A stretch of DNA of 46,115 bases, from positions 1 through 46,115 of the IMG/VR virus record IMGVR_UViG_3300031228_000011; one strand, 5' to 3'. This stretch comes from a virus (Duplodnaviria > Caudoviricetes). The notes under the pieces are model-generated. The model worked only from the letters and a program-made list of their open reading frames with translations, made no database searches and had not been told where the DNA came from. This document shows positions 378 to 46,115 of this stretch, in pieces; within the stretch, counting starts at the first letter, position 1; the number at the start of each line of letters is the position of its first letter. A program made the position numbers and the translations under genes.

Positions 378-639
378 CGATCAGATCCTCTTCGGCTTGT
401 TCAACAGCAGCAGTGTCGGCCTGGCGTTCCTCGGCGGCAGTCTCCACAAGGGCCGCCTGAGTGCCCAGGAGCGCGATCTCGGCCTCGGCTAGGGTGAGAG
501 CCGTCCGAGCCTCGTCTCGCGCGCCAGCGGCCCGCGTCCAGCCCCACCAGCATACAGCCAGCGCCAAGGCCATGCCGATAGCGACGAAGCCCTTGATACC
601 GATGGCGGCTGCGATCTTGCCGGCTGCGATCATCATCAT
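229..639 (-). CDS. Rz: i-spanin (Rz-like)
   Basis: N-terminal TM segment, Ala/Glu-rich coiled coil, C-terminal Cys; ATG at 639 overlaps the upstream TGA (ATGA). Confidence 0.72.
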   Translation of the reverse strand: MMMIAAGKIAAAIGIKGFVAIGMALALAVCWWGWTRAAGARDEARTALTLAEAEIALLGTQAALVETAAEERQADTAAVEQAEEDLIDAIAKVPDTQPDAVRVRLGCERLRRAGRLDAALTAEGGPCSGIEAGPAG

Positions 640-875
640 TCTCCAAGGGCAGCAAAGGCCGCGATCATCAATGCCATGCCCGAAATCAGCGCGGTCACGG
701 TCCACCTAACCTGCTCTTTGGTGACGAAGGTGGTTTGTTGGTGGCGCAGCTCGCTCAAAATATCGTTGTGCGACTTGGACTTCTCGTCGGCGGCTTTGAG
801 CGCGACGTTGACGGCCTCTTTGTCCGCCCTCCGCAGTTCCTCGAACTCGCGCAGACGGACGTGTTCTTCAGCCAC
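636..875 (-). CDS. Small coiled-coil protein with C-terminal TM helix (lysis accessory)
   Basis: VAEEHVRLREFEELRR...WTVTALISGMALMIAAFAALGE; GTG at 875 overlaps the end of the upstream gene. Confidence 0.6.
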   Translation of the reverse strand: MAEEHVRLREFEELRRADKEAVNVALKAADEKSKSHNDILSELRHQQTTFVTKEQVRWTVTALISGMALMIAAFAALGE

Positions 876-1266
876 CGGGCTTCGCTTTGATCTCTTCCGC
901 CTTGTCCACGGCAGCAGCGGCGGTTTCCTCGGCGGCATCGCCAGCGGCGTCGGGTGATGTGCCCGCGCCGGCGTGAGCGGCGGCTTCGTCGGTTCGTGTT
1001 TTCGCCTCGGTCGCCTTGGCCACCGCCACGTTGCGGTCCTTGATCCCAGCGCCGCCCGCGATAGCGACGAGGATCGCGGCGAGCCCGCCGGGGAACGCGA
1101 TGCAGTAGGCGGTGATGTCGAACTCGCGCCCCTCCGCCATGTTCCAGGCGACAAAGCCATTGGCCCCGACGATGAAGCTGAACGCACCGGCCGCACCGAC
1201 CAGGCGGGTCAGCTCGTACTCGCCGCCGATGCCGCGGAGCGCGTTGGTGAGGCCGGGGAAGATCAT
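868..1266 (-). CDS. Putative holin (2 TM helices)
   Basis: Two hydrophobic segments then a charged tail; in the lysis cassette; ATG at 1266 is coupled to the TGA at 1263-1265. Confidence 0.6.
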   Translation of the reverse strand: MIFPGLTNALRGIGGEYELTRLVGAAGAFSFIVGANGFVAWNMAEGREFDITAYCIAFPGGLAAILVAIAGGAGIKDRNVAVAKATEAKTRTDEAAAHAGAGTSPDAAGDAAEETAAAAVDKAEEIKAKPGG

Positions 1267-1331
1267 CCCATCACCCGCCACGCCGCCGCAATCCGCCCAT
1301 CGTAGCCCTTCTGCCCCTTGCCGTTAGACAT
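1263..1331 (-). CDS. 22-aa mini-ORF carrying a second copy of the endolysin C-terminus (MSNGKGQKGYDGRIAAAWRVMG)
   Basis: 17 residues identical to the endolysin end; GGAG 8 nt before the ATG; stop overlaps the holin ATG. Confidence 0.7.
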   Translation of the reverse strand: MSNGKGQKGYDGRIAAAWRVMG

Positions 1332-1353
1332 AACATTTGCTCCGTGATAACGG

Positions 1354-1851
1354 TTGCCGATGGACACGGAAGAATGGCGGCCGACGCGCGAGGTCGAGGG
1401 CTACGAGGTCAGCAACTTGGGCCGCGTTCGGCACGCCGAGAAGGGCACAATCAAAGGCGCACCCGTCGCCCGCAACGGGTATCGAGTTGTCAATCTGTGG
1501 CGGCACAACAAAGGGCGGGTCTGCTACGTCCACTCCTTGGTGGCCGAAGCTTTCATCGGCACTCGGCCGCCGCAAATGTCGGTCAACCACATCGACGGCG
1601 ATAGGTTGAACAACCTGCCGGCGAACCTCGAATATATGACGCTTGCCGATAACTCGCGCGATCAAGCCGCTAACGGCAGGGCCGCCAAGGGTGAGCGCAA
1701 TGGACACGCGAAGCTGACGGCAGATCAGGTTCGCGAGATAAAGCGACGCGCAGCCAACGGGGCGCGCACATGCGATCTGGCCATAGAGTTCGGTGTAGGT
1801 TCGCCTATCATCAGCCAAATCAAGAGCGGGACGCGCTGGGGACATATCTAG
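1354..1851 (+). CDS. NUMOD4-HNH homing endonuclease (antisense to the late operon)
   Basis: EEWRP...YEVSNLGRVR (NUMOD4), VHSLVAEAFIG...VNHIDGDRLNN..NLEY (HNH_3), C-terminal AKLT...HTH. Confidence 0.92.
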   Translation: MPMDTEEWRPTREVEGYEVSNLGRVRHAEKGTIKGAPVARNGYRVVNLWRHNKGRVCYVHSLVAEAFIGTRPPQMSVNHIDGDRLNNLPANLEYMTLADNSRDQAANGRAAKGERNGHAKLTADQVREIKRRAANGARTCDLAIEFGVGSPIISQIKSGTRWGHI

Positions 1852-2543
1852 CCGCCGGTCCGCCATGCGGCTGCAATTCTGCCATCATAGCCTTTCTGAC
1901 CTTTCCCATTAAAACCACGCGCGAAGGCGAGGCAGTTGGCCGGGTTGCCGTCGATCTGGCGCAGCGCGCCGATCAGGCCGTTGACGCGGATAAACCGGGC
2001 GAAGGCGTCATAGTGGGCGAATTCGCTCAGGCTGAGCTGCCACACGAACTCGCGCACGCTGGAGTAACCGAGCGCCTTCCAGTGCGCGCCCATGATCTGG
2101 AACTTGCCGAAGCTCGCGCATTCGGCGGCAACGTCTAAGCCGAACCGCCCGGCCGCATCGGCGAGCTTTTCCCAACTGTCGTTGATGCCGTCATTGTCGG
2201 CGTCCGTCGTGTAGCCGCCCGGCGAGGGATTCGACAGGAACGGCACGGCGATGCGAACGCGCCGCCACAGGTAATGCCGCTCCCACAGGGCCTTCAGCAG
2301 ACCGTCGTTATCCCAGCCCCCGCCGGCACTCTCAACCTTGGCGACGGCTCGCAGGTTGCGTGCCGGGGCGCCAAGGGTGTTGGCGATCAGCGTCACCTCG
2401 TCGGGCGTCACTGCGGGCGCGTTGCGGTTGCGGAACACCTCGATCACCGCGGCGCGGGTCATCGGTCCCCATGCGCCGTCCTCAACCAGGTGCGCGCCTT
2501 TCGAGTTGAACCAGCGTTGCAGTTCGCGTGTGCGCTCGCTCAT
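1848..2543 (-). CDS. Endolysin: peptidoglycan-binding N-terminus plus N-acetylmuramidase (DUF3380-type)
   Basis: DGAWGPMT PG-binding motif; AVAKVESAG, ALWERH, SFGKFQIMG.H, FARGFNG muramidase motifs. Confidence 0.88.
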   Translation of the reverse strand: MSERTRELQRWFNSKGAHLVEDGAWGPMTRAAVIEVFRNRNAPAVTPDEVTLIANTLGAPARNLRAVAKVESAGGGWDNDGLLKALWERHYLWRRVRIAVPFLSNPSPGGYTTDADNDGINDSWEKLADAAGRFGLDVAAECASFGKFQIMGAHWKALGYSSVREFVWQLSLSEFAHYDAFARFIRVNGLIGALRQIDGNPANCLAFARGFNGKGQKGYDGRIAAAWRTGG

Positions 2544-2911
2544 TCGCCTTCTCCCGTCTTTTTCCTGGCCTTGTCGGCGGCGACGTTCAGTTGCGCGAGC
2601 TGCTTCGCATCGCCGTAGCCCTGCATCAGCCCCCGCAGGCGGGCGACTTCTTCCTCGCTCTCGGCGTGCTTGCGTTCGCATTCGGCGAGACCCTCACGCA
2701 ACGAAACGCACTCGGCCTTCATGCGGTCTATTTCCTGCCGGAAGTCGTCCAGAAGGGATTGCAACCCGGTATCGAGCCGGTCTTCCTTCTTGTCGATCCG
2801 GCCGGCAACGAAGCCCGCCAACCAACGCACCACGAGAAAGGAGAAGCCGAAGCTCATCCCCCCGACGCTGGTGTAGAATGCCGTCGAGAGCGCGACCCCG
2901 GATTCGATCAT
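2540..2911 (-). CDS. TM plus coiled-coil protein upstream of the endolysin (holin/antiholin-like)
   Basis: MIESGVALS...FSFLVVRWLAGF TM then a long coiled coil; coupled to both neighbours. Confidence 0.6.
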   Translation of the reverse strand: MIESGVALSTAFYTSVGGMSFGFSFLVVRWLAGFVAGRIDKKEDRLDTGLQSLLDDFRQEIDRMKAECVSLREGLAECERKHAESEEEVARLRGLMQGYGDAKQLAQLNVAADKARKKTGEGE

Positions 2912-3378
2912 GCTGCATCCTCGTGCCTCGCTCTCGGGTTGAAATGTTCCCAAGGGTTGAACTGTCGGTTGAATGCTCGCACGCGCAGGGCCAGTTCGTT
3001 GACGTAGGGCAGGCCGAACAGCATCTGTCCCGCCACCAGCCACCAGCCCGCCCACCAGCTTTCCGTGGTGTGCCCGCCGTGGAGCCAGGCGTAGACCCCG
3101 AGCCCCGTGGTCAAGGGGATGCTCGCCGCGATCAGCTTCTCCGCGATGTCGAAGCGGCGCTTGCGGGTCAGGAACCAGACGATGATCGCCGCATCGCAGA
3201 CCACGAATAGCGCAAAGCTGTCGCCGCCTGTCGCCTGCCACCAGGTTTGCTGAATGCCCCACCCCAGGCAGATCAGCAGCCCGGCGGAACGGACGCTGCC
3301 CAACAGGCATAGCCGCACGGCGTTGAGCGCCAGGCTCAAGCCGCACAGCACGACCAGGACGAGCAGCGTCCAGTGCAT
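2908..3378 (-). CDS. Multi-pass (about 5 TM) membrane protein
   Basis: Successive hydrophobic, Trp-rich segments; TGATG coupling with the upstream peptide gene. Confidence 0.7.
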   Translation of the reverse strand: MHWTLLVLVVLCGLSLALNAVRLCLLGSVRSAGLLICLGWGIQQTWWQATGGDSFALFVVCDAAIIVWFLTRKRRFDIAEKLIAASIPLTTGLGVYAWLHGGHTTESWWAGWWLVAGQMLFGLPYVNELALRVRAFNRQFNPWEHFNPRARHEDAA

Positions 3379-32017: not shown

Positions 32018-33763
32018 TTACGCTCGCTCCTCGCGGCTATTCGGTTGGGCATGGAAAACAGGGGAAACACCGCGAGGGCTCTCGGGCTTATTGTGAGAGA
32101 GATCGTGGGAGGGATTGAGGTGGTCGACTTGGTCGATGCGCCGGCCGATCCAAGCCATGACGGGGACGGCCATGCTGTTGCCGAGCGCCTTGTAGCGCGG
32201 GCCGTCGGGGCACTGCGCTTTCCCGCGCCAGGGGATGTTGGTGTAGTCGTCGGGGAAGCCTTGGAGACGTTCGCACTCGACGGGCGTAAGCCTTCTTACC
32301 GCGCTCGCTTGGCTCGCATGTAATGGAGGCCGCACAGCCCCTTCGCGTGAGCCGTCTCCCCGCACTCCCGGCATTGCGTCTTGGGCGGTGTCCCCACTTT
32401 CAGGGGATCGCCCCAGCGCTTGAAGCGCAGCAGATGCTTGTTGCAGAAGCCGCGCCCCTTCTGCGGTTCCCCGCAGATGGTGCAGGGCGTCCTCGGGCGA
32501 TGCTCCTTCATGTGACAGCTTCGACAGAGCCGCATCAAGTTCTCGAGCCGGTTGTCCTGCCAGTCGTCGTTCTTGTGGTGAACCTCGGCTCGCGAGTTCC
32601 CGCAATGCTCGCACGGCCCCGGCGGGCATATCTTCCGCGCGTGGTAGTGCGCTGTCATCCAGGAAACCATCGTGACCTCCAGTAACATAAGCCACCGCTG
32701 GCATCACCCCCGCATTGGCATGGCTCTTGCTGTGACCGCCTGCCCGCAGAGTGGGGCTGCAATCCTCCATCGCATCGGCGCCATGGTCCTTGGCGGAGAA
32801 GGCGATGGGCTGCGCCAGTATCGCGCCGGGGCCACCGCCGTTGTTGCCACCCATTGCGGACAGGCACGGCCAAACCATTTCGGGCGTGACCAGTGCATCG
32901 CCTTGAAAGCCAGTTTTGACGGGCACGGGTGCAGGCTTGCCATCGTTGTCGATCCGCAGGGCCACCGGCACCAGCGGCGTCCCGCGTCCGGTTCCATCCT
33001 CGCTGGCGTCGAAGCCTTCACCGCGAAGGGAATGGGCGACGCAATATTCGTCCATCCCATCCCGGCCCGTGCCCGTGCCCGTGCGGGTGGTCATGGCGGG
33101 AACTACGTCAAGGCAGATGATGTGTCCGGCCTGGCCCTGGTTGTCATCTGCGCCGCAAGTTCCAACGCCTGTTGCAGTGAGTGCGGCAACTGCCGGTCCC
33201 GCTTGGCGGCTCGGCGCAATATTCCACGACAGGCTGTGGCGCTCAAAAAGAACCGCCGCAGCACGTCGCCAGTCTCCAGAATGTCCAACAACGAACACGC
33301 GGCGGCGCCGTTGGGGAATTCCAAAGTGCTGAGCGTCCAAGATTCGGTAGGCGAACCCATACCCGAGTTCGACCAGCCCTCCGAGGATGGAACCAAAGTC
33401 CCGTCCGCCTCCCGACGACAGGACGCCGGGGACGTTCTCCCACACCAGCCATCGGGGCCGTGTGCGATCAGCAAGGCGGAGAAACTCAAGCGCGAGGTTG
33501 CCACGGTCGTCAGCCAGTCCGCCTCTAAGGCCGGCGATGCTGAACGATTGACAGGGGGTGCCTCCGACAAGAAGGTCAATTGGCCCATATTCGTCGGCTC
33601 CGATCGTGGTGAAGTCGCCGTGAAGCGGAACATGCGGGTAATGGTGCGCCAGCACGGCGCGCGGGAATGCCTCTATCTCGGAGAAGAACGCAGGCTCCCA
33701 TCCCAGCGGGTGCCAGGCAGCGGTTGCGGCTTCTATTCCGCTGCAAACACTTCCGTATCTCAC
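32018..33763 (-). CDS. dcm: DNA (cytosine-5) methyltransferase with an enlarged variable region
   Basis: Motif I SVCSGIEA, IV GGTPCQSFS, VI ENVPG, VIII QRRRRVF, IX RRLTPVECERLQGFP, X YKALGNSM. Confidence 0.95.
   Translation of the reverse strand: MRYGSVCSGIEAATAAWHPLGWEPAFFSEIEAFPRAVLAHHYPHVPLHGDFTTIGADEYGPIDLLVGGTPCQSFSIAGLRGGLADDRGNLALEFLRLADRTRPRWLVWENVPGVLSSGGGRDFGSILGGLVELGYGFAYRILDAQHFGIPQRRRRVFVVGHSGDWRRAAAVLFERHSLSWNIAPSRQAGPAVAALTATGVGTCGADDNQGQAGHIICLDVVPAMTTRTGTGTGRDGMDEYCVAHSLRGEGFDASEDGTGRGTPLVPVALRIDNDGKPAPVPVKTGFQGDALVTPEMVWPCLSAMGGNNGGGPGAILAQPIAFSAKDHGADAMEDCSPTLRAGGHSKSHANAGVMPAVAYVTGGHDGFLDDSALPRAEDMPAGAVRALRELASRGSPQERRLAGQPARELDAALSKLSHEGASPEDALHHLRGTAEGARLLQQASAALQALGRSPESGDTAQDAMPGVRGDGSREGAVRPPLHASQASAVRRLTPVECERLQGFPDDYTNIPWRGKAQCPDGPRYKALGNSMAVPVMAWIGRRIDQVDHLNPSHDLSHNKPESPRGVSPVFHAQPNSREERA
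32296..32670 (-). CDS. HNH endonuclease with Zn-finger repeats, nested in the +1 frame of dcm
   Basis: CEHCG...VHHKNDDWQDNRLENL..LC.SCH..EH plus two C..C......G.C..H repeats; GGAGG RBS before the ATG at 32670. Confidence 0.85.
   Translation of the reverse strand: MVSWMTAHYHARKICPPGPCEHCGNSRAEVHHKNDDWQDNRLENLMRLCRSCHMKEHRPRTPCTICGEPQKGRGFCNKHLLRFKRWGDPLKVGTPPKTQCRECGETAHAKGLCGLHYMRAKRAR
33103..33588 (-). CDS. Overprinted polypeptide in the +1 frame of dcm, resembling the M.EcoHK31I beta subunit N-terminal region
   Basis: WSNSGM...W.....E.P......SL.DILE......FFLS..AC.GILRRA.KR...LP..L..AL. Confidence 0.7.
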   Translation of the reverse strand: MGQLTFLSEAPPVNRSASPALEADWLTTVATSRLSFSALLIAHGPDGWCGRTSPASCRREADGTLVPSSEGWSNSGMGSPTESWTLSTLEFPNGAAACSLLDILETGDVLRRFFLSATACRGILRRAAKRDRQLPHSLQQALELAAQMTTRARPDTSSALT

Positions 33764-34290
33764 TGCGCGCCCTCCACATATTTGAGGACGGCAAGGAGTT
33801 CGGCAGCGGTCGCGTCCGACTTGATGCGGTTAGCCCGGAACGAAATTACCCTTACGTTGGAGGGCGTGTAGCCATGCTCGGGAATGATGCGGTCCAAGGA
33901 TGCGCGATGATCGCGCGGCCCATCGGACGACAATGTGATGCCCAACACGGGGCACACGGCCGGGATCGTGATGTCGTCCGGCGCAATGGTGAACGGAAGA
34001 CCGCGAGCTCGCGCACGTTTGCGAGCGTCGTAGAACATGCAGTATTCGGTGGTCTGAGACTTTCCGTGCGAACGGAACATCGCTCCCATGCGGTCCCGGC
34101 GAAAACAGCCGCAGCTTCGATTTTTGCCGAAGCGAAGGTTGGAGCCCGGCAGCACAAGGACGCCGCCGCAATCGCAGGTGCAGCGCCAACGCCATTGGTC
34201 ACGGCGCCGACCTTCAACGCGCGCCGCGACAGTCAACCGACCAAAGCGTTGGCCCAATTCGATGCCGGAACAGACGGAGCCGTAGCGCAC
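33760..34290 (-). CDS. HNH-type homing endonuclease whose first 11 residues duplicate the dcm N-terminus
   Basis: GQRFGRLTV...W.C.CDCG...SCGC domain; CPVLG...SLDRI....GY...NV..IS..AN..K nuclease motif; GTG at 34290 coupled to the upstream TAG. Confidence 0.85.
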   Translation of the reverse strand: MRYGSVCSGIELGQRFGRLTVAARVEGRRRDQWRWRCTCDCGGVLVLPGSNLRFGKNRSCGCFRRDRMGAMFRSHGKSQTTEYCMFYDARKRARARGLPFTIAPDDITIPAVCPVLGITLSSDGPRDHRASLDRIIPEHGYTPSNVRVISFRANRIKSDATAAELLAVLKYVEGAQ

Positions 34291-45988: not shown

Positions 45989-46115
45989 GAGACACAACGA
46001 CGACGACTTCCTCGCGATCCCGCGCCTGGCGGAGTATTACCGCCCCGGAACACCTGTTGTGGGGTGGGGGACTATTCCAGAGGGGTGGGGCAATCGACCG
46101 CAGCGCCATGCCCCT
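45989..46115. repeat. Terminal direct repeat, right copy (identical to 1-127)
   Basis: Exact 127-nt match. Confidence 0.93.

Follow-up and report, generated by a model that had tools for sequence, protein, structure and literature searches.

How does a phage lysin gene that has taken up an endonuclease gene at its 3′ end stay whole, and how could ribosomes reach the next lysis gene across the insert? The question is raised by a locus in which the closing peptide of an endolysin is encoded twice, on either side of an antisense NUMOD4-HNH endonuclease gene. The window, by which we mean the whole stretch of 46,115 nt that was analysed, represents a whole virus record with a 127-bp terminal direct repeat (1-127 and 45989-46115), which fits a circular assembly. 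Relatives of the lysin lie in genomes whose record titles name Croceibacterium, Sphingobium, Blastomonas and Allosphingosinicella, and hence a sphingomonad host is likely.

The endolysin (1848-2543, minus strand) is an intact N-acetylmuramidase of 231 residues (PF11860, E = 3.7e-29; endolysin in PHROGs). The gene after it (868-1266, minus strand, ATG at 1266; 868-1278 with its Shine-Dalgarno (SD) sequence) encodes a small holin-like membrane protein of 132 residues with two hydrophobic segments, and lies between the lysin and a weak Rz-like match (E around 1e-3). No holin family in Pfam or PHROGs matched its product, and the Atlas placed it in unnamed viral clusters. The product is probably a membrane-piercing lysis protein, called a holin here on account of its position. 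Its homologs at 27 loci (L283-L309) make up a candidate unnamed holin family. The stop of the upstream ORF is overlapped by 4 nt at most of these loci, and at three of the 27 a NUMOD4-HNH gene lies upstream of the family member. The upstream ORFs are very diverse and include one muramidase, several GH19-like lysins and others.

The 17-codon lysin end occurs at 1860-1910 within the lysin gene and again at 1275-1325, flanking the HNH gene. Both copies of the peptide, which had been described from the sequence alone, were found at these coordinates with the codons reported; 11 of the 17 codons (12 nt) differ, every one silently, 6 nt being the longest stretch over which the two are identical. A six-frame self-search with 8-mers, the terminal repeat aside, showed just two peptides in the window to be duplicated over several 8-mers, this lysin end and the head of a methylase described below. 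The locus scored 104 in our survey of duplicated termini, while the best of 400 mismatched flank pairs reached 44. Furthermore, a Logan contig from the probable source sample, which is not independent biology, covers 600-3200 with no differences, and therefore the duplicate is not confined to a single assembly. Contigs of that sample, which show presence only, contained no joint that skips the HNH gene.

The gene between the copies (1360-1851, plus strand) encodes an I-HmuI-like NUMOD4-HNH_3 endonuclease of 163 residues, antisense to the lysis genes. Pfam gives 41.4 bits for NUMOD4 (cutoff 23.4) and 46.9 bits for HNH_3 (cutoff 24.8). The ORF is intact, and His77, Asn85 and Asn98 match I-HmuI (PDB 1u3e, E = 8.7e-12); the I-HmuI Asp position is Asn76 here, which is nearly invariant in a 28-protein alignment. 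The N-terminal half of the protein, with NUMOD4 and HNH, aligns with I-HmuI, whereas the C-terminal part does not. The proposal that the element entered the lysin 3′ end without splicing is supported. The lysin is complete as it stands, a search of 1100-2100 for an intron or ribozyme core gave no Rfam match up to E = 1, and the HNH gene with a 34-nt spacer fills the insert, so that a ribozyme core would not fit. The stops of the lysin (TAG) and of the HNH gene overlap as CTAG. At the other end, a predicted sigma-70-type promoter (1325-1353, plus strand) reads TAGACA (1325-1330), 17 nt, TAACGG (1348-1353), 6 nt, ATG, and would give a leaderless HNH transcript. Its geometry scores 8, a value attained at 0.2% of random positions in the window and at six of 19 other antisense-type loci; a stricter sigma-70 scan returned no promoters. 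There is a terminator-like hairpin at 1471-1455 (minus strand) inside the bridged region, the one found equalling the shuffle mean of 1.0.

Codon usage, relatives and coupling all bear on which copy is the original. Against a reference of 4637 codons from 12 genes, the upstream copy has a codon score of z = -5.0, as low as none of 50000 simulations and three of 4433 overlapping windows, and the downstream copy has a host-typical score of z = +0.46. The relatives with at least six comparable tail codons (47 of 51) were nearer the downstream copy in 32 cases and nearer the upstream copy in seven, with eight ties. Synonymous difference to the relatives is 49% for the lysin body, 48% for the downstream copy and 68% for the upstream copy; the closest relative (77% amino acid identity) shows synonymous differences at 6 of 16 positions against the downstream copy and at 13 of 16 against the upstream copy. 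An [A/G]TGA-coupled ORF follows the lysin in 33 of 43 distinct relatives with enough flank, a count that includes the occupied L050. The empty state is seen in L069, where the lysin (67% identical) is coupled through GTGA to a homolog (54% identical) of the downstream gene. Since codons, relatives, coupling and L069 agree, the downstream copy is best taken as the displaced original end. The sequence-only reading had reached the same view and had named alignment with relatives as the check; lysin ends there indeed lie nearer the 1263-1325 version, commonly with the next ORF coupled.

The replacement tail (1848-1919, minus strand), which contains the duplicate peptide, has A/T-ending codons from R209. 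It had been described as silently recoded, and this is correct for the 17-codon peptide but not for the whole tail: the A/T-rich stretch opens three codons earlier, at 1919 in codon 209 (CGT GGT TTT), and takes in Phe211, where 47 of 51 distinct relatives have Tyr. Hence the tail is not purely silent. We rejected the 11 differing codons of 17 as proof of directed recoding, as this count is within saturation (P about 0.10). The non-random feature is the choice of codons in the upstream copy and not the count of differences. Taken as a whole, the HNH gene comes close to host codon usage (GC3 0.74, z = -1.8; last 17-codon window z = -2.6), and a uniformly A/T-rich donor therefore explains the tail poorly; such a low-GC source for the whole cassette is disfavoured. 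The upstream tail ends in WRTGG, like WRTAA in L001, and the remnant ends in WRVMG, like WKVVG in L002, L031 and L033, and on these endings the tail may come from a donor allele. We infer that selection favoured a tail unlike the target. Lysin scans of viral, metagenome and genome collections and HNH scans of viral collections yielded no further occupied allele of the cassette. The 19 close HNH homologs (57-79% identity) are known as proteins without genomic context, and among lysin loci the closest empty relative is only the 77%-identical one.

The region opposite the HNH gene is itself an open frame. This bridging ORF (1324-1845, minus strand) runs for 173 stop-free codons in register antisense to the HNH gene and in the frame of the downstream gene, to which it would be fused without its TAA. 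It begins 2 nt past the lysin stop, at the complement of the HNH terminal His codon, as bridges do at other loci, and its TAA overlaps the ATG of a mini-ORF (ATGTCTAA). It has no PHROG match, and the chance of its being stop-free is 0.15-0.40. The mini-ORF is as had been claimed, with GGAG (1343-1340), 8 nt and ATG 1331 opening 22 codons (1331-1263; 1263-1343 with the GGAG, minus strand) and its TGA (1263) overlapping the downstream ATG 1266 as ATGA. It holds the displaced lysin end (1325-1263). The hand-overs from lysin to bridge, mini-ORF and downstream gene are thus a 2-nt gap, an 8-nt overlap and the 4-nt ATGA overlap. The mini-ORF SD (-5.8 kcal/mol) is similar to those of several ordinary genes of this phage and is equalled by 20% of random sites. 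Within the remnant lies a separate SD for the downstream gene (1278-1270), which at -11.2 kcal/mol ranks with the strongest 0.7% of random sites. The complement of ATG 1331 (CA+T) also falls at the end of the predicted HNH -35 box.

Between the end of the bridge, which falls directly on ATG 1331, and the downstream ATG there are 57 nt. In the available part of one study, coupling was lost at about 20 nt (PMC10666635); that the bridge nonetheless stops on ATG 1331 supports the mini-ORF as a frame adapter. The idea that re-initiation on the remnant preserves coupling stands in part: locus L105 shares the design, but the mini-ORF is one link of a longer chain, as the antisense bridge had been overlooked. 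From the layout a coupling function is likely, though the data do not require it, because the downstream SD is strong and ATG 1331 complements the -35 box. Coupling may be dispensable, since the downstream gene owns a strong ribosome-binding site. In the accessible portion of another report, 13 of 14 overlapping pairs were strictly coupled with variable SD dependence (PMC6728339), so that an SD does not exclude coupling.

In order to see whether the layout recurs, we surveyed NUMOD4-HNH loci obtained with a scan of the 28-protein alignment over 7 of the 64 parts of a viral collection, taking the best 80 of 597 confirmed loci and adding five others; 78 distinct loci, the window being one, had enough flank. 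By a strict score a peptide is duplicated around the HNH gene in nine of the 77 other loci from this set (best 80 of 597 plus five), which suggests that terminus replacement is common. The nine score 53-107, above every one of the 400 mismatched flank pairs. The C-terminal cases are L153, L111, L145, L116 and L099 and the N-terminal ones L118, L132, L172 and L149, with L101 and L156 borderline. Among alphaproteobacterial genome loci, 11 of 13 were scorable and one was positive (L271). Judged by eye, the replacement copies are A/T-richer in other G/C-rich cases (L101, L132, L149, L271 and L298). In L101 (1153-1746) the displaced gene end forms the C-terminus of the HNH protein itself as an in-frame fusion (AYFRGQRVL). 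In L018 (1450-2200) an HNH gene of 49% identity occupies the beginning of a tail tube gene in antisense orientation; the ribosome-binding site and start (MPVS) occur twice around it, and a 236-codon bridge extends from the old start and stops just short of the new one.

The antisense frame was open in six of 11 antisense loci and in none of 23 co-oriented HNH loci (GC3 about 0.42 or more; Fisher P = 3e-4), where antisense means neighbours on the opposite strand by PHROG match and five of the 23 co-oriented loci were judged by eye. PHROG matches replaced noisy heuristic strand calls where possible, and low-GC3 and unorientable loci were excluded. With eight heuristic or by-eye loci added, 11 of 19 antisense loci are open (P = 2e-5). 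There are relationships among the loci, L127 and L137 having one site in common, and the P values therefore overstate independence. In-register frames are stop-free in 10 of 16 antisense loci against 0.83 expected from a GC3-fitted model, a set that omits three heuristic loci without a bridge and discounts the single stop of L136, which precedes the bridge start. The bridge ends at most 15 nt from the next start in eight loci and runs in frame into the remnant in three; L131 and L151 fit neither type clearly. Counter-examples without a full bridge are the antisense loci L116, L114, L155 and L273 and the heuristically called L148, L270 and L280; in L116 the remnant is present and the bridge absent. 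In L080 (87-659), with an antisense HNH gene, a 190-codon bridge overlaps the stop upstream of it as ATGA and the start downstream of it as TAATG; the promoter geometry is that of the window (TTGACG-17-TAAAGC-6-GTG). The bridging ORF upstream of the HNH 3′ end in L151 seems to have its own ribosome-binding site (AAGGAG, 7 nt, ATG) and not a stop-start overlap.

Other HNH insertions at lysin 3′ ends were found in L271, L298, L050, L105 and L291, in muramidase, GH19-like and phrog_465 lysins, and all five have an ORF chain. L105 is the closest to the window: its bridge has one internal stop followed by a GTG restart, and 3 nt past the bridge stop a new ATG opens a remnant ORF of 15 residues, with GTGA coupling to the next gene. 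L271 combines a GH19-like lysin, an antisense HNH gene and a downstream gene of the same family as in the window. Its off-register bridge of 204 codons opens at a GTGA overlap and continues into the remnant in the same frame, with no stops against 2.9 expected (P = 0.019). L050 has a similar chain with a muramidase lysin and an AP2-type HNH gene, and so does L298, but with a co-oriented HNH gene and a shifted sense frame. In L291 the HNH gene itself overlaps both neighbours.

Two further elements of HNH type lie elsewhere in the window. The first (33731-34290, minus strand) is a 5′-end mirror of the lysin case. The original head of a C5 methylase (VRYGSVCSGIE) is fused to an endonuclease of Endo VII/HNH-like type (33760-34290), and at 33763 a GTGA overlap, a new GGAGG and a re-spelled head mark the restart of the methylase. 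The re-spelling includes serine switches from TCC to AGT or AGC, and the head in use is a codon outlier (none of 50000 simulations). Of 73 relatives, 35 are nearer the nuclease-fused head, 29 nearer the used head and nine tied, which makes this a weak test. A different Endo VII gene occupies the same methylase-head site in L238. The second element is an HNH frame (32296-32688, minus strand; HNH_3 at 23 bits, under the 24.8 cutoff) that lies out of frame inside the methylase ORF (32018-33763). The methylase frame stays open across it (P = 0.085, synonymous permutation), in the manner of ShiLan.

The anatomy of the lysin locus, the codon asymmetry between the copies and the recurrence of the layout in other phages are direct observations. 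Beyond them, we consider it fairly probable overall that the locus represents a terminus-replacing, likely non-splicing homing cassette combined with a ribosome relay from the lysin to the next lysis gene. The parts differ in strength. On the sequence comparisons, terminus replacement is very likely. Where a co-infecting phage or prophage has an uninterrupted lysin allele, the I-HmuI-like enzyme would nick it close to the Tyr-Asn junction, and the cassette would be copied in during repair of the nicked allele. The diverged tail would keep the lysin whole, remove the target site and suppress deletion between the copies. We lean towards cleavage at the lysin site with immunity from the tail, although free-standing phage endonucleases reportedly cut at distances of hundreds of base pairs, or thousands, from the insertion site (PMC2988022), which counts against local cleavage. 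The HNH gene would be expressed from a leaderless promoter of its own, within the 34-nt spacer. Ribosomes leaving the lysin would re-initiate on the bridge, and its TAA would halt them and prevent fusion to the downstream gene; they would then re-initiate at ATG 1331 and end on the ancestral ATGA overlap. The relay would keep coupling and spare 500 nt of untranslated mRNA. It is, judging from the comparison across loci, probably translated; that the output of the downstream gene materially depends on it is a tentative and somewhat doubtful proposal.

An unlikely alternative accepts the terminus replacement and dispenses with the relay. The downstream gene would be initiated at the SD that it has in the remnant, the bridge would be the open antisense frame that a G/C-rich gene usually has, and the GGAG-ATG would be a by-product of the HNH promoter. 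The strength of that SD, the complementarity of ATG 1331 to the -35 box and the remnant without a bridge in L116 all speak for it, as does the fact that 50 of 170 stretches of 165 codons in the genes of this phage are stop-free in the in-register antisense frame. It leaves aside, however, that the open frame follows HNH orientation across loci, that bridges stop close to the next start or enter the remnant in frame, and that the window bridge ends exactly on the mini-ORF ATG, a design repeated in L105.

Quite improbable, in our judgement, is that the tail is just flanking sequence from the lysin of a diverged donor phage, brought in by a one-off recombination, its spelling not selected and the nuclease cutting elsewhere or no longer homing. 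The endings shared with L001 on the tail side and L002 on the remnant side, the saturation of the codon differences and the atypical last HNH window would fit such an event, and the fungal mitochondrial tails discussed below are read as horizontally acquired in the available part of that work (PMC3630166). Against it stand the contrast between a near host-like HNH gene and a tail at z = -5.0, the greater distance of the tail than of the remnant from most relatives, and the A/T-richer replacement copies at the five other loci. A donor origin and selected immunity are mutually compatible. Hardly credible is a self-splicing intron or a duplicate created by assembly. Intron-borne HNH genes do occur in lysins, for example in staphylococcal lysK, and I-HmuI is itself intron-encoded, unlike the HNH of the window. 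The unspliced lysin is nonetheless complete, without an Rfam match or room for a core, and the Logan contig reproduces the duplicate.

The terminus-replacing cassette that we favour has several partial counterparts. Integrating elements such as phage 21 and e14 in icd and SXT in prfC restore the gene ends that they enter. In these, as in engineered recoded-rescue drives (Cleave-and-Rescue), the invader supplies a differently spelled terminus and the target gene survives; they use integrases or engineered nucleases, whereas the window has a natural 0.6-kb cassette with a nuclease only. The closest natural likeness is in fungal mitochondria, and terminus replacement as such is already known from there, as far as the accessible parts of the reports on mORF gene hybrids go (Allomyces macrogynus atp6; Glomus atp6, atp9, cox2 and nad3; PMC3630166, PMC6279837, PMC7487136). 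As described in the part available, an endonuclease ORF near the gene 3′ end brings a replacement C-terminus and the native end is left downstream, nearer to relatives than the inserted end (PMC3630166). Compared with those accounts, ours is a phage locus, its nuclease is NUMOD4-HNH and not LAGLIDADG or GIY-YIG and lies antisense, and its remnant stands in an operon, where it carries the SD of the next gene and the ATGA overlap and is likely still translated.

Of known phage systems, the free-standing HNH genes and the hidden HNH genes of ShiLan type come nearest. Free-standing phage endonucleases (T4 seg and mob genes, antisense segD, Aeh1 mobE; 'intronless homing') resemble the element in lacking an intron or intein, in the HNH family, in overlapping neighbours and in having to fit the host operon; in the accessible sections they sit between or split genes, with no replacement terminus, remnant or bridging frame described there (PMC2988022). 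The hidden HNH of ShiLan in actinophage methylases is likewise a non-splicing insertion with a second frame kept open, but, in the text available, it lies on the same strand and is read through as part of the host protein, unlike the antisense, terminal lysin element with its bridge as a separate ORF (PMC11855218). Full-text literature searches of freely accessible texts gave no report of re-spelled replacement termini or antisense bridging frames in phages, and neither feature is reported for phages in the accessible portions of PMC2248197, PMC2988022, PMC10448857 and PMC12724721.

We tentatively suggest, with more reserve than for the locus itself, that such phage HNH genes form a widespread non-splicing class that could be called 'cut, rescue and relay', with re-spelled nuclease-proof termini, a junk frame kept open, a mini-ORF adapter where needed and operon coupling kept. 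Lysin-holin junctions would be a recurrent target, as lysis timing would depend on that coupling. For annotators the locus is a warning of stranded termini, spurious antisense ORFs and chimeric gene ends. As the remnant would mark the target, the site would be predictable from sequence alone, and many uncharacterised nucleases would thereby become directly testable. If the proposal is true, it would add a third route, besides introns and inteins, by which homing nucleases live inside conserved phage coding sequence, and it would imply codon selection that keeps a useless antisense frame open. It would also bear on the dependence of phage late operons on translational coupling and on their protection from polarity.
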